A stretch of DNA of 46,435 nt from Promethearchaeota archaeon (GTDB lineage: Archaea > Asgardarchaeota > Lokiarchaeia > Sigyniarchaeales > SOKP01), in NCBI GenBank assembly GCA_048940645.1, contig JBHLOI010000028.1, forward strand, positions 1-46,435, given 5' to 3'. A program made the position numbers and the translations under genes. Of this stretch, positions 16,494 to 26,528 are shown piece after piece (the stretch's first letter is position 1; every line of letters begins with the position of its first letter). The notes below the pieces were generated by a model. That model did not search any database. It was not told the DNA's origin and saw only the letters and a program-made list of their open reading frames with translations.

Positions 16494-19358
16494 TTATTTC
16501 CTAGCTTTTATACCTTTCTTCTTTCTTAATCTCCATTTACGAACTTCGTCAACAACAGACACACTAAAAGCTCCTATAATTAGGGTAATCCAATAATAAG
16601 GATGAAACAGTGGAACAATATGAAAAGCTAATCCGATGGGAGTGTAAAGAATTAGCAATTGCAATCCAAGAGAAAGTCCTGTAGCCCAGAATAAATGTTT
16701 ATTTGGAAATAAATAGAATGGTTTTATATTGGATGTGCAAGTATAGACAAATAACAATTCACATATTACCAGATTAGTAAATATGATTGTCTGAGTTAAT
16801 GATATTGCATAGAAATTCGCATCTGGCCAAAATGCTGGATCGATAATAGTTGGATCAAATCCTGCTAATCCAGGAAGTCCAGCATTAGCCCAAGCAGGAA
16901 TTAAAACAGTCCATAAAAGTAAGTATAGTGTAATATCAGTTATTGATGTATATATACCAAGAAGTAAAACGGGTCCTTTAATTTCTGGGAGCAATGTAAA
17001 TCCTTTGCGCGGCTCTTCTTTCATAACATCAGGATCCGTGGGTGTTAAACCAAGAACCATAGCAGGTATGCCATCTGTCGCTATGTTAAGCCATAAAATT
17101 TGTATTGGAACAACTGGAATCGCTAAAAATACAAAAGGAAATAATTTCATAACGATATACGCTGCAAGTATTAAAAATATCTCGTCAAAGTTAGTACTCA
17201 ACATGTAACGGAAGAAACCTTTAGTTGTTTCAAATATTCCTCTTCCTTCTTCAATAGCATTAACTATAGTAGCATAATTATCATCTATTAATATCATATC
17301 AGAAGCTTCTTGAGTTACTTCTGTTCCCTTTAATCCCATCGCAACACCTACGTGAGCACCTTTTACTGCTGGGGCATCATTCACTCCATCTCCAGTCATC
17401 GAAACTATTAAACCTAATTCTTTTAATCTTCTTAAAATCCTTAATTTATGGGCTGATGTAACTCTTGCAAAAACATCTACCGTTTTCACTTTCTCTTGGA
17501 GTATGTCATCACCCATTTCTTCTAATTCTGCTCCAGTTATTGCTTCAGGAGAATCTGTTAATCCTATTTCTTGAGCAATTGCTAATGCAGTAATTTTGTG
17601 ATCTCCAGTAATCATAATAGTTCTTATTCCGGCCATCCTTGCTTCCTCTATTGAGTCCTTAACTTCATCTCTTGCAGGATCTATAATTCCTGTTAAACCT
17701 AGATATATATAATCTCTTTCAATTTCTTCTTCTTGATAACCTTCATTTAATTGTTTATATGCAATACCCAATACTCTCAAAGCACTCCTTGCAAAATCTT
17801 CATTTTGTTCAATAATTTTATCCTTTACTTCATTAATTGGTTTTACAGCTCCGTTATAAATAGCTTGACTTGCATTTTCTAATAAAACATCTGGAGCGCC
17901 CTTAATTAAAGAATAGAGTGTATTATCGATCCTAACAACAACTGCCATCATTTTCCTATCAGAACTAAATGGGATTTCATCAATTTTTTCAGCTTTAGTA
18001 TCAAGTTTCATTTTCATTGCTAGAACTTTCATTGAAATTTCAGTTGGATCTCCAACAACATCAGTATTATTTGTTCCATCATTTCTAGGTGATACATTTG
18101 AATTATTACAGAACATGCAAACTTCTAAGAATCGTCTTAAATTTTCATTTATTTGTACTTGATTGTTCATATCATCAACGATTTTTCCTTCAATAGCATA
18201 ACCTACGCCTTCAACATTATATACTATTCCTCCGAGGAACACTTTTACAACAGTCATTTCATTTTTTGTTAAAGTCCCTGTTTTATCTGAACAAATTACA
18301 TTAACTCTTCCTAAGGTTTCTACAGCGGTAAGTTTTCTAACTAAGGCATTTCTATCTGCCATTTTTCTCATTCCAATACTCATTACTACTGTAATCACTA
18401 CAATAAGGCCTTCAGGAACAGCTGATACTGCTAAACTTATTGAAATTTCAAATGCTTCAATAATTTCGTTAACTTCAGTTGGTCCAAATGCCAATCCCTC
18501 TGTAATTATGATAATTAGTAGTTCAACTACGAACACTGCCGCACAAATAACTAATATTACTATTCCCAGTAATTTTCCAAATCTATTTACCTCTTTCTGA
18601 AAAGGACTAAGTTCAACTTTTTCTTCTTGCAAGCTTTCTGCAATTTTTCCAATCTCAGTGTTCATTCCAGTTCCAATAACTATACCTTCTCCATTTCCTC
18701 TAGTAATTATTGTATTCATGTATCCTAGATTGGTTCTATCTGCTAGAATCATTTTTTCATCTACAGGTTCTAGCTGCTTTTTGACAGGTTTCGATTCACC
18801 CGTTAATATTGCTTCATCTACATCTAGTGAAAACTCTTTATATAATCTAATATCAGCTGGAAATTTATCACCTTCCTCTATTAACACAATATCACCAGGT
18901 ACTAAATCTTCTACATCTATCTCCATTACCTTGCCTTCCCTACGCACTTTAGCAAAATGGGGTGCTAATTTTTTTAAACTCTCAAGAGATCTTTCAGCCT
19001 GATATTCCTGATAGAATCCCAATACAGCATTAACAATTAAAATTGCTGCAATTACTATTGCATCTGTATATTCTGAAGACCAAGCTTCAGCTCCAGGTTT
19101 AGATGATTCATAGATTCCTATAGCTATTGATATTATAATCGCAAAAATTAGTAGATATATTAAGAAATCTTTGAATTGACTAATAAAAATTTGCCAAGCC
19201 GTTTTTCCTTTTTCTTTAATCAACTCATTTTTACCATATTTTTCGAGTCTTTTTGTTATCTGAGCTTCAGTTAAGCCAGTTTCAGTTGATGTCTCTAGAA
19301 AATTTTCAACTTTTTCAGATGTTATTGCATGAGCATTAAGTTTTTTTATATCCATCAT
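16494..19358 (-). CDS. P-type ATPase, type IIA (Ca2+-transporting-like)
   Basis: TGES, PEGL, CSDKTGTLT, KGAP, MITGD, TGDGVNDAPA, STNFDE, LWLNIATDG. Confidence 0.95.
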   Translation of the reverse strand: MMDIKKLNAHAITSEKVENFLETSTETGLTEAQITKRLEKYGKNELIKEKGKTAWQIFISQFKDFLIYLLIFAIIISIAIGIYESSKPGAEAWSSEYTDAIVIAAILIVNAVLGFYQEYQAERSLESLKKLAPHFAKVRREGKVMEIDVEDLVPGDIVLIEEGDKFPADIRLYKEFSLDVDEAILTGESKPVKKQLEPVDEKMILADRTNLGYMNTIITRGNGEGIVIGTGMNTEIGKIAESLQEEKVELSPFQKEVNRFGKLLGIVILVICAAVFVVELLIIIITEGLAFGPTEVNEIIEAFEISISLAVSAVPEGLIVVITVVMSIGMRKMADRNALVRKLTAVETLGRVNVICSDKTGTLTKNEMTVVKVFLGGIVYNVEGVGYAIEGKIVDDMNNQVQINENLRRFLEVCMFCNNSNVSPRNDGTNNTDVVGDPTEISMKVLAMKMKLDTKAEKIDEIPFSSDRKMMAVVVRIDNTLYSLIKGAPDVLLENASQAIYNGAVKPINEVKDKIIEQNEDFARSALRVLGIAYKQLNEGYQEEEIERDYIYLGLTGIIDPARDEVKDSIEEARMAGIRTIMITGDHKITALAIAQEIGLTDSPEAITGAELEEMGDDILQEKVKTVDVFARVTSAHKLRILRRLKELGLIVSMTGDGVNDAPAVKGAHVGVAMGLKGTEVTQEASDMILIDDNYATIVNAIEEGRGIFETTKGFFRYMLSTNFDEIFLILAAYIVMKLFPFVFLAIPVVPIQILWLNIATDGIPAMVLGLTPTDPDVMKEEPRKGFTLLPEIKGPVLLLGIYTSITDITLYLLLWTVLIPAWANAGLPGLAGFDPTIIDPAFWPDANFYAISLTQTIIFTNLVICELLFVYTCTSNIKPFYLFPNKHLFWATGLSLGLQLLILYTPIGLAFHIVPLFHPYYWITLIIGAFSVSVVDEVRKWRLRKKKGIKARK

Positions 19359-19597
19359 AATAAGTTCAATTTCGATTTATATTAATTTGAACATAAAAAT
19401 AATAGTTTATAATGTAATTATTATCAAAACATTTTAGTTTTTGTTTTTATAACTTATAAAATAGAATACCAAAAAATCATTTAGATTTACAAAATATAGA
19501 GTAAGCACGCAAATAAATTTATTAGTTTATACATCTATTATTTGATAAATTTATTAAAACCTAATTTTATCTCTATATAAAAAAAAATTTAATAAAA

Positions 19598-20158
19598 ATG
19601 AGACCTTCAAGAGTTTTCAGATGGATTGTTCGAACGTTTTTGTTTTTACTCACTTTATCTATGACAGTAGTCTCAATTTTGGGAGCTCTATCTGCTGTGA
19701 TGATCCTTGGGAATATGAATGAAAATATAAAAATTCCGGCAAGCCCACCAAGTACTAATTTTAACATTACAAATCCAAGTAGTATGAACATTACTATTCC
19801 ATTTAATATTACCAACTCTGGATATTTTGATTTAACAAATCTACTTATTGATATTAAAATTTCTATGACTTTTGGAAATTCTTCTACCCCCACCAACGAA
19901 ACTACTAATACAGTTATTTTTGATAAAGCCCAAACTTTTCCAAACATTATGAGAGGTCAAACTTATTCAGGAGCATTTTTTGGCAATAGTTCAGATTTTA
20001 TAGTGGCTAATTTTCCAAATGCTACAACTGAAATTGATTGGTTCAGAACACCTGTTTTAGAATTTTATGGAAATTTCACAATAAGTGCTTATTATTCTCT
20101 AGATTTAATTGCTTTTACTTTTGGGATAAATAATGTTACACTAGGAACATTTCCATAA
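19598..20158 (+). CDS. Membrane-anchored glycoprotein with a LEA_2/WHy-like beta domain
   Basis: One N-terminal TM helix, ITIPFNITNSGYFDL motif, dense N-x-S/T sequons. Confidence 0.6.
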   Translation: MRPSRVFRWIVRTFLFLLTLSMTVVSILGALSAVMILGNMNENIKIPASPPSTNFNITNPSSMNITIPFNITNSGYFDLTNLLIDIKISMTFGNSSTPTNETTNTVIFDKAQTFPNIMRGQTYSGAFFGNSSDFIVANFPNATTEIDWFRTPVLEFYGNFTISAYYSLDLIAFTFGINNVTLGTFP

Positions 20159-20160
20159 TA

Positions 20161-20166
20161 AGGAGG
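20161..20166 (+). promoter_or_regulatory. Shine-Dalgarno site AGGAGG
   Basis: Lies 8 nt upstream of the ATG at 20175 in a 16-nt intergenic gap. Confidence 0.75.
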
Positions 20167-20174
20167 AGTTTAAA

Positions 20175-20687
20175 ATGGGAGCAGGAAAGAATTTAATTAA
20201 GGGTATTATTTTTATGGGCATCTATATAGTAATTACAATGGTGATACCTTATTTCACATTTACTTGGATTAAAGATTTGAGTGATCTAGGCATTCCAATA
20301 GTACTTGAACAGCAGGAGTATGAATCTATTATTTTTTGGATTTCTGCTTTTGGATTATTAATTAGCTCCTTGGCATTTTTCTCCTATTCCTCCCCCAAAC
20401 AATCAATACGTAAGGGAGTATTTGCATTAATTCAGATATTAGTAAATAGCCTGTATATATGGAGCTATAAGTTTTCTGGAGCAGCTGATATTTTATTCCA
20501 ATTTAGTGCCTCCCAACATATTACTGGATACCTTTTCTTAAATTTCCAAAACATGATTATGGTATATCTAGGGATATACTTTCTTACTATTCTTTTAAAA
20601 GGCTATGATTTAGCTGACTTCATTATTAATAGAGAAAAAATTCGTGAAAAAAGATATGGAATTAGCGGAGGTTATGATAGAGAATGA
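20175..20687 (+). CDS. Hypothetical 4-TM membrane protein
   Basis: Four hydrophobic segments, strong SD, ATGA overlap with the next gene. Confidence 0.75.
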   Translation: MGAGKNLIKGIIFMGIYIVITMVIPYFTFTWIKDLSDLGIPIVLEQQEYESIIFWISAFGLLISSLAFFSYSSPKQSIRKGVFALIQILVNSLYIWSYKFSGAADILFQFSASQHITGYLFLNFQNMIMVYLGIYFLTILLKGYDLADFIINREKIREKRYGISGGYDRE

Positions 20688-21088
20688 TATTTCAAGCTGT
20701 AGATTTTCTACAAGTATTAGCTGAAATAATAGGTGCAATTCTAAATTTTTTAAAACCAATTGTAAGTCCAATTGGAGCTTGGATGATTAATTGGATAGAA
20801 GTCGTACTTAGAATTTTTCCAAAAAATGATTTAACCTTATATATAATATTATTCGTGATAATAATCATAATTGGCGCGATTACTAATATATTATGGCCTG
20901 GAGACAAACCACCTAGATTTTTGGAAAAAAAGTATAAATTGATTGAACTTGAGAAAGAACCTGAACGTGTAGAATATAAAACACTTTTTAAAAGAGAACC
21001 TACTGAAGAATTAAAAAAATTTGGAGATGAATTTAAAGAACCGGGAAAGGACTACAAAGAATCAGCGGATGAATATGAAGATTTTTAA
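20684..21088 (+). CDS. Hypothetical membrane protein with a charged/acidic C-terminal tail
   Basis: Amphipathic N-terminus, TM LYIILFVIIIIIGAITNIL, E/K-rich tail, translational coupling to the upstream gene. Confidence 0.7.
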   Translation: MIFQAVDFLQVLAEIIGAILNFLKPIVSPIGAWMINWIEVVLRIFPKNDLTLYIILFVIIIIIGAITNILWPGDKPPRFLEKKYKLIELEKEPERVEYKTLFKREPTEELKKFGDEFKEPGKDYKESADEYEDF

Positions 21089-21109
21089 AAAAGATAATTA
21101 AAATTTAAT

Positions 21110-21736
21110 TTATTTTTTAATTTTTTGCACTAAATCAGCCACTCTTTTTCCTAAATCTTTGGCTATTAACCCTGCCAGTTCATCGATTTCTCCTTTCCCG
21201 ATAAATTCTTTTAAATTAAATTTTTGTAAGCTTGTTATAGGGATGTTGCCTTCAATTACAGGAGATCCAAGATTGTTTGCTACTACAATCATTCCTTGGA
21301 TAAGCGCAAAATTTATTAGATCTGAAATAACTCCTTCTCCTCCATTCCTTAAACCAGTAGATGCCAAAGGAGCAAATATGACATCTTTCAATAAATATTT
21401 TTTCATTTTCCATGGCCTTGATCGGTCAATTAACGCTTTTATTTGAGAGCTCACAGATCCAAAATAATTAGGAGCAGCAATTAATATCGCGGCAGATCCT
21501 AAAATTTTTTCTTCTAACTTATTCATATCATCATTTTCATTAAGAGGGCAATCATTAGGTGGTCTTAAACATTGATCACATCCATTGCAAGGAGTGATAT
21601 TATAATCAGAAATTTGAATTTTCTCTATTTCATAATCGTTGGAGATTGAATTTATTCCCTCTATAGCTTGATCAATTAAAAAATTACAGCTCCTATTTTT
21701 ACGTGGAGATCCTACAATAAGACTAATTTTTGTCAA
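21110..21736 (-). CDS. Iron-sulfur flavoprotein / NADPH-dependent FMN reductase family
   Basis: GSPRKN, Cx2Cx2Cx6C, APNYFGSVS, IDRS, RNGGE. Confidence 0.9.
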   Translation of the reverse strand: MTKISLIVGSPRKNRSCNFLIDQAIEGINSISNDYEIEKIQISDYNITPCNGCDQCLRPPNDCPLNENDDMNKLEEKILGSAAILIAAPNYFGSVSSQIKALIDRSRPWKMKKYLLKDVIFAPLASTGLRNGGEGVISDLINFALIQGMIVVANNLGSPVIEGNIPITSLQKFNLKEFIGKGEIDELAGLIAKDLGKRVADLVQKIKK

Positions 21737-21860
21737 TTTATTTTCTCACTTAAATTATTATTTTACTATACTATTTAATGTGTTATATCACATTTAAATT
21801 TGTAATCGCCCTAATTAGATATAAAAAGAATATATTTTACCTTTTTGAGAAAAAATTAGT

Positions 21861-22604
21861 ATGAGTTTTAAAGATAAGCTCTGCCAATATAAACAGAGAA
21901 AAGATCTAATAGATGAACTTGATTTTTATAAATCAATGATCTCAAAGAGAATAGAAAATAAAAGTTTTAAATTCGCATTAGAAAAAATTGAATCCGCAAT
22001 AATTCTCATCAAAGAAAACCAACCTTATTATGACTTAGATATTGAACTTTCAGAATTCGAAAATCTAAAAGAGGAAATTATTTCTGAGTTAGAATTGTGT
22101 CAAAAACTTTATACCAGGCGTTATAGTAATTTATTAAAAGAAAGTCTGACTGAATCTAATATAGAGAATTTTTTGAGATTATTAGCAATGCTCAAGGGTG
22201 AAGTAGATGAAAACTTAGATAATTTTAACCTTAAAGATTTATCTGCTAGAATAAACAAGTATTTTATTTTTTTGAAAAGATTGTATATAATAATTAGTTC
22301 TTATAAAGTACTAAACTATCACGGAGCCTCGAATAAAATATTAGAATTTGTAAAAGAAATAAAAAGTGAGGATTATCCGAATATTAAAGCACTGATTTTT
22401 TATATTTACCAAGATTTACTAAATAATCAATTCTCGAATTTCTCAAAACAATATGATAAGTTATCGATTACAGAATTATCTGAAAAATTAGCAATAAATC
22501 AAGATAGTTTGTCTCATTTTTTGGGTATTATCATGAAAGACCCAAATTGCCCTATTAAAAAATATAATACCTATACTCAAGAAGTAATCTTTAGCAGATA
22601 TTAA
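21861..22604 (+). CDS. Helical protein with a C-terminal PCI-like winged-helix domain
   Basis: All-alpha body ending in FSKQYDKLSITELSEKLAINQDSLSHFLGIIM...YNTYTQEVIF. Confidence 0.6.
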   Translation: MSFKDKLCQYKQRKDLIDELDFYKSMISKRIENKSFKFALEKIESAIILIKENQPYYDLDIELSEFENLKEEIISELELCQKLYTRRYSNLLKESLTESNIENFLRLLAMLKGEVDENLDNFNLKDLSARINKYFIFLKRLYIIISSYKVLNYHGASNKILEFVKEIKSEDYPNIKALIFYIYQDLLNNQFSNFSKQYDKLSITELSEKLAINQDSLSHFLGIIMKDPNCPIKKYNTYTQEVIFSRY

Positions 22605-22620
22605 ATCATTATTTTTCGAT

Positions 22621-23544
22621 TTATAATCCACGATAGAACTCATTTCTTAGAATATTTGGATGAGTTAACCCGTAATTTATTACTTCTAAAATCTTCTCTT
22701 TATCTTTCTCCAGGACTCCCTTTATGGGCAAATAATTGCTAGCGTGATTGGATCGGAAGATGCAGTTGGCATTTTTATTCTCAAAATTAATTGTATTAAT
22801 AAATATTTTTAATTCATGAAGGATCTCTGAGGAGCCCATTTCTTTAAATTGGCCCTTACTTTGTTTCTTGTATATAACAGTACCAGGGGGTATCATAAGA
22901 GATAGGAATGCAATATACCAAATTCTATCATCCTTTGGGCAAATTTTATTTACTAAATCTGCAGATTCCTTGGCATGTTTTTCTGAAATCTCAGGATGAT
23001 TAGCACCTCCAAGTCCATTAATAAATGTTGCTGATAAGGTTATATTAGCCTTAAATAATTTTTTAGAAGCTTCAATGTATTCAGCTTTGGTAGCATGTTT
23101 GTGTACTTCCTTTAATAATGGGTCATAACCCGACTCAAACCCTACATACGCAATTTTGAGTCCTGCGTCTGATAATAACTTCAATTGGGCATCGGATTTT
23201 TTAATTATATCTTTTGCATGAGCGTAAACTCCTATCCTATCTAATTTTGGAAAAATTTTCATAGCATAATTCGTTAAATCGATTAATTTTTCTGTTGGTG
23301 TCACCAAAGCATTCCCATCTAAAAAGAAAATCCTACGTACAAAAGACCCATTTTGATTTTTTGCAATATCTAAATCCTTTTTAACTTCTTTAAGATCTCT
23401 TATTTTGAAATCCTTTCTAAGATTTGATACACAAAAATCACATTTATAAGTACAACCCTCTGTTAATTGAATTAACAAAGAATGAGCTTCGCTTGGTGGA
23501 CGAAAAACAGGGTGACAATAATATATATTATCGTTCTTTACCAT
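22621..23544 (-). CDS. Radical SAM protein of unknown function (RPPSE family)
   Basis: RPPSEAHS, CTYKCDFC, FLDGN, GFESG, RSNHASNY. Confidence 0.9.
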   Translation of the reverse strand: MVKNDNIYYCHPVFRPPSEAHSLLIQLTEGCTYKCDFCVSNLRKDFKIRDLKEVKKDLDIAKNQNGSFVRRIFFLDGNALVTPTEKLIDLTNYAMKIFPKLDRIGVYAHAKDIIKKSDAQLKLLSDAGLKIAYVGFESGYDPLLKEVHKHATKAEYIEASKKLFKANITLSATFINGLGGANHPEISEKHAKESADLVNKICPKDDRIWYIAFLSLMIPPGTVIYKKQSKGQFKEMGSSEILHELKIFINTINFENKNANCIFRSNHASNYLPIKGVLEKDKEKILEVINYGLTHPNILRNEFYRGL

Positions 23545-23562
23545 AATTATTATTCTTTACTT

Positions 23563-24246
23563 TTACTTCTCATTCTCCTCTTCTGCATCTTGAGGCTTTT
23601 TAGGACATGACTTAAGATGTCGTCCTAATCTAACAAATTCTTTACCACAATAAGGACACACTTGCTTTTCTTTTTCTTCATCTTCTTTAGCTTGAGATTT
23701 GGGTGTAGTAGTTTTTTTTCTCTTCTTCTTACGACTTGGGAGCACATCATCTATATTAACATCATCAGGAGCAAATTCACAAGTGGGTATGTGGGATCTT
23801 AAATCTTCAAAGATTTCACCGCAAAATGGACATTCTAAATCTCCAAATTCTTCAGCCTCGATTATTTCATCTTTTCCAACTTTTCGTTTTTCAAATTTTA
23901 GGGGTTCTTCTTCCTCTTCTTCTTCAAATTCATCAAAAGTTAAGTCAATTTCGTCTTCTCCCGTGAGTTCTTTAAGTTCGAATTCCTCTAAACTAATCTT
24001 TTTCTCTAAAATCTTTTTTTCCGCAATTTTTCTACTCTCTTCATAAATTTCTTGTATTTTATTATTAGATTTTACAGGATCATAGATTGAACATACCTGG
24101 CACACGTAAGCTCTCCTACCTAGTATTAAATCTCTTGAAGGACAGACACATAAAGGTTGTAGACTGTTAGAAATATCTCCTAACGGTTTTAGATGCTTAC
24201 AAGCTATTTTTCTAGAATATTTAATTTTCTGTTTTCGACGTGGTAT
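23563..24246 (-). CDS. Multi-zinc-finger protein: Cys-rich N-terminus, acidic linker, two C2HC fingers
   Basis: CKH..CVC..CQVC, then CPFCGEIFEDLRSHIPTC and CPYCGKEFVRLGRHLKSC. Start inferred at ATA 24246 after a GGTGAT SD; the track uses TTG at 24327. Confidence 0.75.
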   Translation of the reverse strand: MPRRKQKIKYSRKIACKHLKPLGDISNSLQPLCVCPSRDLILGRRAYVCQVCSIYDPVKSNNKIQEIYEESRKIAEKKILEKKISLEEFELKELTGEDEIDLTFDEFEEEEEEEPLKFEKRKVGKDEIIEAEEFGDLECPFCGEIFEDLRSHIPTCEFAPDDVNIDDVLPSRKKKRKKTTTPKSQAKEDEEKEKQVCPYCGKEFVRLGRHLKSCPKKPQDAEEENEK

Positions 24247-24335
24247 AATAACATCACCAAAAGAAGTAATTAAAATAATATAACTTAGAATATATTTTTT
24301 TTCATTATTAAAAAGAGTAAATTTCAAAAAGAGTT

Positions 24336-25913
24336 TTAATAGTTATATCTTATAAATTTGAGGTCATTAATTATTTTCTCTTTTATTTCAGAATTCTCAA
24401 CATTTGGTATTAACTCATCAACTAGATCTCTTAATTCAATTATTTTTTCACTAAGTAATTCAGGTTTACTCCAGAGAGATTTTCTCAAAGGATGACTATG
24501 AATTATAGCTTTATTATAATTTTCTATAGCTTCTTTATAAAAAAGACATGCACTATCATAATTTTTAAGTCTTGTTTGATATATTGTAGCAATTTTATTA
24601 TAACTCATACCAGCTCCAGCATAATCCATCACTTTTCCAAAATATATAGCTGAGTTTTCAATTTTTTTCAAGGCATCCTTTAAAATTTGTATATCTCCTT
24701 TTTTTAAAGAAATATATCCAATTATGTAGCTTGCTACTCCTAAATAAAACAATTCGTCATTTTGCTTAGACAACCTGAATAATTCATCTGCAAATTCCTC
24801 TGCTAGAACTAAATGATTATTTGAAATGCATAATTTTGCTACAGTTCTCAATAAATCCAAAACACGATTAATATCATCTAATTCTTTATACTTTTCGATA
24901 CCTTTGCGGTATCTTTCAATTCCTGTAAATGTATCCTTATTCTGGAATGCCTTATTTCCCTCATATATTAAATATTCAGCTTGTTCTTTTAGATTGGTAG
25001 AATCAGAAAGATTTTCCTGATTTGATGTGTCATAGAAAAGGTTGCTAAATCCAAAAGAAAAATCCTCATTCATAGGTATATCAACCAAATCCTTTGGTTC
25101 AGTTCTGATATCTATTTCAGATATTATCCTTTCTGAGTTTAAATCATTTTTTTCGAAATTTTGATTATTTTTATAGTTAGATTCTAATTTGTCATCCTCT
25201 TTATAAGCTGATTGTAAAGGCTTACCAGCAGAAACTAATGCAGACAGCTCAGATAAAACATTTGCAAAAAAGTATTTATTTAAACCTTTAACTATATAAT
25301 CAACTTTATGATAGTTATTTTCAAATTGAGGAGAATTTGGATTCATAGTTACATCATTTATTCTATAAATTTCAAATCCAGTGTCATATTTAGTAAGAAT
25401 GTTCTCACCAATCTTCTCCTCTTTCTTTTTTCCTAATAAAGTATGATCAAACACTAATCCGCAAAAATCAGGATTATTTTCTTGAAACCATAATTGGTTT
25501 CTTAAGTCAATATCAGAAAAGAAAAGACTTAATCCAGGATGAGAATGAAACCAACCTACAACGTAATGGCCTTTATCTTCAGAGTATAATTTGTCTTCTA
25601 TTTCTGATATGAATACATAATGTCTATTATCTAGTTGAACATCAGCATCATGTCCAAAAGTTAAAGCATATGCATTTTCTACATAAACAAAATCATCATC
25701 AGAGTAACCTGTTAAAATTCCATAGATTTCCTTCCAATCTTTTGGTGGGATGGCTTGATTAGAATATCTACTAGCATATAAGATAATCGTCTTATAAGCT
25801 TCAGCATTAATAATTACTGGTTTAGTTACTTTTTCTTCTTTTTCTTCTTGTTCCTTTTGTTCCTCTTCAATCTCTTGTTTTCCGTTATTTTCTCTTTTAA
25901 ATTCTTCTGTCAT
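24336..25913 (-). CDS. MPN+/JAMM metalloprotease (Rpn11/CSN5-like) fused to a C-terminal TPR/alpha-SNAP-like solenoid
   Basis: KEIYGIL...VVGWFHSHPGLSLFFSDID is a complete E-HxHx7SxxD motif. GLVFD follows, then helical repeats in the C-terminal ~220 aa. Confidence 0.88.
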   Translation of the reverse strand: MTEEFKRENNGKQEIEEEQKEQEEKEEKVTKPVIINAEAYKTIILYASRYSNQAIPPKDWKEIYGILTGYSDDDFVYVENAYALTFGHDADVQLDNRHYVFISEIEDKLYSEDKGHYVVGWFHSHPGLSLFFSDIDLRNQLWFQENNPDFCGLVFDHTLLGKKKEEKIGENILTKYDTGFEIYRINDVTMNPNSPQFENNYHKVDYIVKGLNKYFFANVLSELSALVSAGKPLQSAYKEDDKLESNYKNNQNFEKNDLNSERIISEIDIRTEPKDLVDIPMNEDFSFGFSNLFYDTSNQENLSDSTNLKEQAEYLIYEGNKAFQNKDTFTGIERYRKGIEKYKELDDINRVLDLLRTVAKLCISNNHLVLAEEFADELFRLSKQNDELFYLGVASYIIGYISLKKGDIQILKDALKKIENSAIYFGKVMDYAGAGMSYNKIATIYQTRLKNYDSACLFYKEAIENYNKAIIHSHPLRKSLWSKPELLSEKIIELRDLVDELIPNVENSEIKEKIINDLKFIRYNY

Positions 25914-26003
25914 TTTAAAATAACAAATTCTTTATTGAAGTAGATATATCTTCCTTAAAATATAATAAAATAATTCTTAAATAAAATTATGTGTTCATTC
26001 TCT

Positions 26004-26528
26004 TTATTTTTTTAATTCTTCATTCTTTGCTTTTTCTGCCAATTTAAGTACCTTTCTAGCAAAATCCAAATTAGGTAAAATTTCTAATGCTTTCTTCAAA
26101 GCTTCAATCGCTTTTGTATATAATTTTCTTTTGTAATATGCTGAACCCAAATTGGTCCAAGCAGATTCATCCTTAGGGTTATGCTTTAAAGCATTTTTAC
26201 TAGCAATGATAGCTTTATCAAAATTTCCCTTATCAATATATACAGAGCTAAGTTCAGACCATGTGTTTGCTAGATTAGGATTTAATTCTAAAGCTTGTTT
26301 TAATGCTTCAATAGCATTTTCATATTCCTTAATTTCATAATAGATATATCCCAAGTTATGCCAATTAATTGCTTCATTTGGATTAATTTCAATGCCCTTT
26401 TTATAAGCCTCAATAGCTCTATTATATTGATTATTTTGAAAATATAAAAATCCAATTTCTATCCATGCATTTGAATTATGTGGGTCATCTTTCAAGACTT
26501 CTTTTAAGGCTTCAATTTTTTTTGACAT
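26004..26528 (-). CDS. Stand-alone TPR protein (about 4 canonical repeats)
   Basis: W..LG..Y....Y..AI.A.KKA.E.NP repeats at 34-aa spacing. Confidence 0.95.
   Translation of the reverse strand: MSKKIEALKEVLKDDPHNSNAWIEIGFLYFQNNQYNRAIEAYKKGIEINPNEAINWHNLGYIYYEIKEYENAIEALKQALELNPNLANTWSELSSVYIDKGNFDKAIIASKNALKHNPKDESAWTNLGSAYYKRKLYTKAIEALKKALEILPNLDFARKVLKLAEKAKNEELKK

Follow-up and report, generated by a model that had tools for sequence, protein, structure and literature searches.

A probable TPR-armed Rpn11-like isopeptidase with a zinc-finger partner and an optional PCI-fold neighbour in a Lokiarchaeial genome

The locus described here lies in a window of 46,435 nucleotides (assembly GCA_048940645.1, contig JBHLOI010000028.1; G+C ~30%), which is the whole stretch of DNA that was analysed and belongs to a Loki-type Asgard (Lokiarchaeia-type) genome of 3.83 Mb and 89.6% completeness (label G000); homologues of its genes are labelled in their sources as Loki-type Asgard metagenome-assembled genomes. 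On the minus strand it encodes a 525-aa protein, hereafter JAMM-TPR, in which a JAMM-type metalloprotease domain (MPN+) is followed by an arm of tetratricopeptide repeats (TPR), together with a zinc-finger (ZnF) protein and a radical SAM enzyme, and on the plus strand it encodes a 247-aa protein with the PCI fold (P0001). With fair likelihood, the JAMM-TPR protein is an Rpn11-like isopeptidase that stands alone, carries its own TPR arm and has the zinc-finger protein as its partner, while the PCI-fold gene is an optional neighbour. This reading starts from directly observed gene models, an intact catalytic motif, folds, and phyletic and synteny patterns.

Assemblies of PCI and MPN subunits, such as the proteasome lid, the COP9 signalosome (CSN) and eIF3, count as eukaryotic inventions, and an Asgard MPN-PCI pair, if true, would be the first in archaea and would bear on the origin of the ubiquitin-proteasome machinery. 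The sequence-only reading of this locus had proposed a minimal module of this kind, proto-lid or COP9-like, and had added the caveat that the linkage could be due to chance, with the radical SAM gene intervening. The caveat proved apt, and the proposed module finds no support: the PCI-fold gene is optional, it is linked to the JAMM gene no more tightly than passenger genes are, and the hallmarks of the lid are absent. The attractive neighbourhood is mostly a matter of inherited block synteny; the robust unit is the TPR-armed Rpn11-like enzyme with its zinc-finger partner, an uncharacterised and widespread deubiquitinase-like architecture of Lokiarchaeia, and a bona fide PCI-fold protein in archaea is established on predicted models. 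According to Fuchs et al. (2018, PMC6043591), no PCI complexes are known from archaea; HTH/PCI domains have been mentioned in Asgard ESCRT-associated proteins (Makarova et al., PMC10936438), and a literature search found no paper on an Asgard MPN-PCI complex.

The Rpn11-like enzyme and its zinc-finger partner

In Pfam, residues 31-148 of the JAMM-TPR protein match JAB (PF01398) with 55.3 bits against a cut-off of 22.5 (E 7.2e-15). The catalytic motif E62...H123-S-H125-P-x6-S133-x2-D136 is complete in the translation and is invariant in an alignment of 21 orthologues from three families; the relatives sampled throughout are 150 genomes of the class, with the families labelled f1 (126 genomes), f2 (13) and f3 (1). 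The closest solved sequences in the PDB are CSN5b, CsRpn11 (the Rpn11 homologue of Caldiarchaeum), Rpn11 and BRCC36, with phmmer E-values of 8.6e-11 for CSN5b and 3.4e-10 for CsRpn11. The AlphaFold2 (AF2) model consists of an acidic disordered N-terminus, the MPN domain (30-230), a low-confidence linker and a confident ten-helix arm (303-520). Although the confidence of AF2 in the MPN domain is only moderate, the domain superposes on Rpn11 (4o8x_B, Z 17.4 over 162 aa, root-mean-square deviation (rmsd) 3.4), CsRpn11 (6fju_B, Z 17.1), BRCC36 (Z 16.7) and CSN5 (Z 16.3), and Foldseek matches the JAMM-TPR model to Rpn11 at E 3e-9. Judged by its sequence and its predicted structure, the 525-aa protein belongs to the MPN+ family, has an intact catalytic site and is closest to Rpn11, CSN5 and CsRpn11, and its motif predicts isopeptidase activity.

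CsRpn11 (Caldiarchaeum subterraneum, PDB 6FJU/6FJV; PMC6043591), Rpn11 and CSN5 have the MPN+ fold and the full JAMM zinc site in common with the JAMM-TPR enzyme. As with CsRpn11, no Rpn8-like partner is encoded beside the JAMM-TPR gene, and the enzyme therefore probably acts alone. Unlike these three enzymes, JAMM-TPR has a 220-aa TPR arm behind a disordered linker, and its gene lies outside the ubiquitin/E2 operon, paired with a zinc-finger gene and not embedded in a PCI complex. The same principle, an active MPN+ enzyme that obtains its specificity from an attached or partnered helical binding module without any lid, is realised in AMSH/STAMBP and in BRCC36 with Abraxas/KIAA0157; AMSH carries an MIT domain. 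In JAMM-TPR, unlike in AMSH and BRCC36, the accessory domain is a C-terminal TPR arm, so that the domain order is different, and no MPN- pseudo-enzyme partner is found at the locus; the PDB sequence search with the JAMM-TPR protein returned no match to AMSH.

The linker between the two domains is mostly disordered or of low confidence in the AF2 model, with two short helices behind the MPN domain. It evolves fast except for the motif L276-x-x-I279-P280 (LVDIP), in which L276, I279 and P280 are invariant or nearly so in the 21 orthologues, and which may be a docking or autoinhibitory motif. The motif, residues 276-280, is encoded at 25074-25088 on the minus strand.

The arm itself is modelled with pLDDT values mostly of 75-95 and superposes on the TPR domains of LGN (3ro3_A, Z 17.5 over 159 aa, rmsd 2.6), NASP (Z 16.0), kinesin light chain KLC2 (3zfw_B, Z 15.9) and gamma-SNAP (Z 15.3), with many further TPR proteins at Z 14-17; feature matches in the ESM Atlas are to TPR_12/SNAP clusters. 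In sequence, the arm stays below the Pfam cut-offs (TPR_12 18.4 bits against 30.1, SNAP 16.7 against 25, Rgg_C also weak). The model therefore places the C-terminal arm in a true TPR superhelical fold of the TPR_12/LGN/KLC/NASP/SNAP type, and the earlier naming of the gene as a JAMM-TPR protease agrees with both halves of the protein. LGN, KLC and NASP, which superpose on the arm at Z about 16-17.5, are peptide-binding TPR proteins: the KLC2 entry 3zfw contains a tryptophan-acidic cargo peptide and the NASP entry 7w5m a histone H3 peptide, both of them short peptides. The likeness to these proteins does not extend to family-level sequence membership, as TPR_12 is under the cut-off.

In almost every f1 locus, and in L028 and L030 of f2, the next gene downstream of JAMM, in the same orientation, is the zinc-finger gene. 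Its end had been placed correctly at 23563, but the start given as 24246 falls on an ATA codon; the sole canonical start in the open reading frame (ORF) is a TTG at 24327, and the conserved N-terminus begins at about 24246. In an alignment of 17 orthologues across three families (A3), the protein shows an N-terminal Cys/His module (C43, H45, C60, C62, C76 and C79, of which C43, C62, C76 and C79 are invariant) and two C-x2-C-x9-H-x3-C fingers, the C-terminal one invariant in the three families and the middle C2HC finger present in f1 only. It also contains an acidic disordered region with the motif DLxxDEFEEEEE in f1 and W-D-[DE]-E-D-[FY]-Y in f2. The family is restricted to Asgard archaea and is precomputed as PF28519. 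The N-terminal module reads AC-x-HL...QPLC-x-C...RDL-x-LG...VC-x-VC and has no family assignment.

The core of the system would thus be a two-gene unit of an Rpn11/CSN5-type MPN+ metalloisopeptidase and a downstream acidic zinc-finger protein, in which the C-terminal TPR arm may serve as the targeting or scaffold domain of the enzyme itself. Since the arm resembles the short-peptide grooves of KLC, LGN and NASP, the motif of the zinc-finger protein is conserved and the two genes are adjacent, the TPR groove may bind the aromatic-acidic motif of the zinc-finger protein, which would then be a likely adaptor or substrate. From targets chosen through this contact, the enzyme would strip a ubiquitin-like modifier, which could be either a SAMP/ThiS-like protein or the ubiquitin encoded in an operon of contig C80. 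The PCI-fold gene, on this explanation, would be a lineage-restricted, dispensable member of a frozen block, and its product would not form a lid- or CSN-like subunit with the JAMM enzyme.

The PCI-fold protein and the hallmarks of the lid

The 247-aa protein fits the architectural definition of a PCI protein but fails the sequence definition. The PCI family (PF01399) scores 13.9 bits in Pfam against a cut-off of 22 (E 0.066); weak PCI matches are seen in 7 of 14 orthologues, with a best E-value of 0.0085, and the same model matches weakly in all 14 of 14 control genomes. A profile built from the 14 orthologues found a single irrelevant match in the PDB (E 1.5), and among 1.84 billion representatives it retrieved 36 matches, all of its own family, and no eukaryotic PCI protein.

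Its fold is much clearer. The AF2 model (pLDDT 91.4) consists of a helical solenoid (residues 13-197) and a C-terminal winged helix (198-244) with elements in the order H-b-H-H-b-b (H173-197, E200-202, H203-210, H214-224, E232-236, E241-244). The Foldseek list from the PDB is made up almost wholly of CSN1-4, Rpn3/5/6/7/9/12 and eIF3a/c/e/l, with a best E-value of only 2.5e-3. In VIA-align, the protein superposes on Rpn6 (5mpb_Q) with Z 10.5 over 222 aa, and residues 79-247 superpose on Rpn6 (3jck_C, Z 9.2, 163 aa, rmsd 4.4) and on CSN2 (Z 9.1, 159 aa, rmsd 4.2), values of 9-10.5 that fall inside the range flagged by the tool as common among helical proteins. The wide VIA search gave mostly three-helix MIT/TPR-like matches to residues 10-80, together with CSN3 (Z 8.4) and DDRGK1/UFL1 (Z 8.2), a result that taken alone does not decide the fold. 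For the ESM Atlas model, the nearest clusters other than its own are PSMD11 (TM 0.54), CSN2, eIF3c, Rpn7/CSN1, CSN3 and eIF3e. On two independent predicted models, the protein is a PCI-fold protein, though not a demonstrated homologue, so that the earlier label "PCI-like" holds for the fold (AF2, Foldseek, VIA and Atlas) and does not hold for the Pfam threshold. Its best full-length structural matches, Rpn6/PSMD11, CSN2 and eIF3c, have the same solenoid and winged helix; compared with the PCI subunits of the lid, CSN and eIF3, it is shorter, has no significant sequence relationship to them, carries no helix behind the winged helix, is single-copy and is confined to part of one archaeal family.

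On the module reading, the TPR, JAMM-TPR, zinc-finger and PCI-fold proteins would form a multi-subunit deconjugation complex, ancestral or analogous to the lid or CSN, and the MPN+ and PCI-fold genes do lie within 2 kb of each other, with an MPN domain closest to Rpn11 and CSN5. The features that characterise the lid, CSN and eIF3 are nevertheless missing. Seven MPN genes were found in the genome, one at the locus and the other six on contigs C54, C60, C69 and C80, and no MPN- partner that could form an MPN+/MPN- heterodimer is present at the locus. Multiple paralogous PCI subunits were not found: the P0001 profile retrieves P0001 alone in the genome, the whole family amounts to 36 representatives, and the other PF01399 matches in the genome fall on proteins with multiple winged helices (802 and 1487 aa), the shorter of which also matches the UFL1 ligase family. 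Lid subunits contribute C-terminal helices to a helical bundle; the AF2 model of P0001 has no bundle helix behind the winged helix and stops three residues past its last strand (241-244 of 247). The two genes are not strictly co-inherited either, as JAMM-TPR occurs in 116 of 126 f1 genomes and the PCI-fold gene in 91 of 126. The 174-aa TPR gene is inconstant among relatives, and the optional occurrence of the PCI-fold gene gives a phyletic pattern that contradicts a module. In view of the missing MPN- partner, PCI paralogues, bundle helices and co-inheritance, and of a profile search without any eukaryotic PCI protein, such a complex is very improbable.

The 802-aa ORF mentioned above (C123:800-1699) contains several repeats of a PCI-type winged helix and matches E3_UFM1_ligase (UFL1-like) with E 5e-17.

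Distribution and synteny among relatives

The TPR arm of the JAMM enzyme was found in 116 of the 126 genomes of f1, 4 of the 13 of f2 and the single genome of f3, whereas the PCI-fold profile finds its family in 91 of the 126 f1 genomes and in no other family. Within f1, PCI-fold genes occur in 6 of the 13 genera sampled (g1 33/39, g12 48/50, g14 5/5, and g18, g19 and g20 1/1 each); the profile found none in g15 (0/7), g16 (0/8), g17 (0/6) and g22 (0/2) or in the sampled g21 and g23, and in g13 it yields weak winged-helix matches only. The synteny comparison, suggested with the earlier proposal, therefore divides the locus: the JAMM-ZnF-radical SAM neighbourhood is conserved, while the PCI-fold gene accompanies it in these six genera only.

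The genes belong to a larger block in the order three membrane genes, FMN reductase, PCI-fold, radical SAM, ZnF, JAMM-TPR, TPR and two TPP-enzyme genes, and within genus g1 the whole 10-kb stretch is collinear. Across families, JAMM-TPR, ZnF and radical SAM are conserved, and in f2 and f3 only these three stay neighbours, with changed orientations. Wherever a PCI-minus locus was examined (in g13, g15, g16, g17 and g22), the JAMM, ZnF, radical SAM and membrane genes have kept their places. Just ~90-150 bp separate the radical SAM gene from the FMN reductase gene in the loci of g15, g16 and g22 that were examined, and the PCI slot is empty in L039, L040, L042 and L052; in g13 the slot is occupied by a CTP_transf_1-like gene, and in g17 by ATP-grasp and alpha/beta hydrolase genes. 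A hidden PCI-fold gene in g17 was considered and rejected, as hhalign of the P0001 profile against the two slot genes gave a probability of 0.3-0.6%. The linkage of the membrane and FMN reductase genes to the JAMM gene is just as faithful as that of the PCI-fold gene. The adjacency of JAMM and PCI-fold genes is inherited within a larger conserved block and has not been repeatedly assembled. By our own arithmetic, with seven MPN genes in 3.83 Mb a given gene would fall within ~2 kb of one in ~1% of cases by chance.

These patterns bear on the possibility that the locus holds a minimal archaeal MPN-PCI pair, in which the PCI-fold protein would dock on JAMM-TPR, probably on the TPR arm, in a regulatory or substrate-recruiting role and without a full lid; it would be a two-subunit analogue of the CSN5-CSN or Rpn11-lid contacts, in part of one Lokiarchaeial family. 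The PCI fold of P0001 speaks for such a pair, as do the persistent convergent proximity of the two genes in six genera, including the basal g14, and a genome that has lost the PCI-fold gene together with a strong divergence of its TPR arm, but several observations count against it. The PCI slot lacks the gene in the g13, g15, g16, g17 and g22 loci, and the TPR arm is equally conserved there: the ratio of TPR to MPN identity is 0.63-0.77 in PCI-minus genera against 0.54-0.62 in distant PCI-plus genera, and 13 columns are invariant in the PCI-plus group only against 14 in the PCI-minus group only, so that the arm shows no relaxed constraint in PCI-minus genera. The unrelated membrane and FMN reductase genes are equally close to the JAMM gene, the PCI-fold gene is on the opposite strand with the radical SAM gene between, and a break within the radical SAM gene has divided the block in genomes G122 and G129, leaving the PCI-fold gene on the membrane-gene side, on another contig than JAMM-ZnF. 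A complex prediction, run without controls, paired residues 29-525 of JAMM-TPR (alignment of 21 rows) with the PCI-fold protein (alignment of 14 rows); its two scores, both 0.00 where the mark is 0.32, are read by the tool as no answer and carry no weight either way. On balance, an MPN-PCI pair is unlikely.

All that remains of the radical SAM gene in G122 is a pair of fragments on separate contigs (L043:4597-4788 and L044:6761-6979); for G129, neither of the two loci retrieved (L045, L046) showed a radical SAM ORF.

Several findings weigh against the preferred explanation, a stand-alone isopeptidase with a zinc-finger partner and a PCI-fold neighbour that would be independent of it. Where both genes are present, they lie on the same contig, ~1-4 kb apart and convergent, in ~9/10 genomes of six genera, and this proximity holds down to 25% identity of the PCI-fold protein (g14); since the linkage persists across six genera, selection for JAMM-PCI proximity may be at work. 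In the gene tree of JAMM, the PCI-plus genus g14 stands at the base of f1 (97/90 support) and the other genera are not resolved. The basal place of g14 suggests that the JAMM-PCI pairing is old within f1, and for the same reason the PCI-fold gene is probably ancestral to f1 and was lost at least twice. In G003, the sole g1 genome in which the loss of this gene was verified, the TPR arm has 39% identity against 57-93% in the rest of the genus; the other genes of this genome are ordinary, and its JAMM gene (L027:4677-6344) contains an N-run and a second frame piece. The contact between TPR groove and zinc-finger protein is purely conjectural, the window contains no modifier gene, and the explanation gives no role to the radical SAM gene, an old neighbour of the JAMM-ZnF pair.

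A further possibility is that the PCI-fold protein acts as a transcription regulator of the winged-helix kind, or as an unrelated scaffold, for the neighbouring FMN reductase or CTP_transf_1-like genes, with no tie to the JAMM enzyme. Its gene is divergent from the FMN reductase gene, across a 124-bp intergenic region (21737-21860) here and likewise in g14 and g18; in g12, g18 and g20 a ~385-aa CTP_transf_1-like gene adjoins it, and once the block broke in G122 and G129 it remained with the FMN reductase/CTP_transf_1-like side. The fold matches, however, are PCI scaffolds and not archaeal or bacterial regulators, and genera that lack the PCI-fold gene still have a conserved FMN reductase gene. 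In addition, the protein is near-neutral, residues 198-247 have an isoelectric point (pI) of 6.8 and helix 214-224 is without Arg or Lys; because the winged helix is not basic, this gives a weak argument against a DNA-binding regulator. Such a regulator or scaffold is accordingly improbable.

Neighbouring genes and other MPN loci of the genome

The features of the locus are collected in Table 1. The ORF map confirmed the coordinates and strands first given for the TPR, JAMM-TPR, radical SAM and PCI-like genes, and likewise the 16-bp gap across which the stops of the radical SAM and PCI-fold genes converge; the multi-zinc-finger, radical SAM and TPR identities are also upheld by the Cys/His modules, the Radical_SAM match and the TPR_1 match (118.5 bits, E 4e-35 for the 174-aa protein), respectively. 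The 174-aa TPR gene upstream of JAMM is found in most g1 loci and one g16 locus, and is absent from the g13, g15, g17, g22, f2 and f3 loci examined.

Table 1. Genes and protein features of the locus, with positions in the window.
Feature	Position	Strand	Remarks
JAMM-TPR protein	24336-25913	-	525 aa; acidic disordered N-terminus, MPN+ domain, linker, TPR arm
MPN+ catalytic domain	25224-25826	-	aa 30-230 of JAMM-TPR protein
JAMM motif	25506-25547	-	H123-x-H125-P-x6-S133-x2-D136; glutamate E62 at 25728-25730
JAMM-TPR linker	25008-25223	-	aa 231-302; AF2 pLDDT <50 for residues 224-302
TPR arm of JAMM-TPR protein	24339-25007	-	aa 303-525, ten helices
Zinc-finger protein (ZnF)	23563-24327	-	start codon uncertain
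Radical SAM enzyme	22621-23544	-	307 aa; Pfam Radical_SAM
PCI-fold protein (P0001)	21861-22604	+	247 aa; AF2 model and fold matches
Stand-alone canonical TPR protein	26004-26528	-	174 aa, upstream of JAMM gene; Pfam TPR_1
Three membrane-protein genes	19598-20158, 20175-20687, 20684-21088	+ (all)	flanking passengers of conserved block
FMN reductase gene	21110-21736	-	FMN_red E 1.8e-23 (Pfam); flanking passenger
P-type cation-transporting ATPase gene	16494-19358	-	954 aa

The radical SAM enzyme matches Radical_SAM (PF04055) with 60.6 bits against a cut-off of 29.5, has the cluster motif C31-x3-C35-x2-C38 and lacks a B12 domain. Across the family its orthologues share 70-92% identity, and the enzyme is one of a very large protein family. 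The NCBIfam equivalogs were not reached, the partial matches to the class-B radical SAM core being far under their cut-offs, and NCBIfam, the PDB and the names of homologues give nothing beyond "radical SAM protein" for the 307-aa enzyme. In family f2 and in several genera, a weakly CTP_transf_1-like gene (~290-390 aa) recurs beside the radical SAM or the PCI-fold gene (L044:4560-5723, L046:4456-5610, L047:5740-6900, L048:4755-5906, L038:4319-5452 and L030:9-893; the loci that gave the CTP_transf_1 family matches are L038, L030 and that of G073). With such a recurrent membrane-gene neighbour, the radical SAM enzyme may have a role of its own, possibly a lipid-related one, and could form a lipid-related pair with the CTP_transf_1-like gene outside the JAMM system.

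The three membrane genes (19598-21088) are kept beside the block across the family, and weakly so in f2. Their products are hydrophobic, with signal or transmembrane segments and N-glycosylation sequons, one of them having many N-x-S/T sequons, and a Pfam search gave no match for any of the three. The P-type cation-transporting ATPase gene directly adjoins the same block in genome G125. A scan for sigma-70 promoters and terminators gave background level only, the sigma-70 model being inapplicable to archaea.

Genes of the ubiquitin type were found elsewhere in the genome. The contig of the locus carries no ubiquitin, UFM1 or ThiS-like gene, and UFM1 had no match in the 89.6%-complete genome. 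A canonical ubiquitin-type operon lies on contig C80 (~17293-22210; L055), with a 279-aa JAB, a UQ_con E2 and ubiquitin-like ORFs; since this ubiquitin/E2 operon has a JAB of its own, the JAMM-TPR enzyme is a specialised paralogue. A second small JAB gene (173 aa) lies near a UQ_con-like gene on C60. Contig C54 carries three MPN genes (L053:4678-9655), one of 316 aa that is divergent and two of 490 and 466 aa in tandem with long helical C-terminal regions, and an MPN-MPN pair would be more plausible for this cluster than for the JAMM-TPR locus. The genes next to these MPN genes encode a 208-aa zinc-ribbon protein and a 734-aa MoxR-like AAA+/VWA protein.

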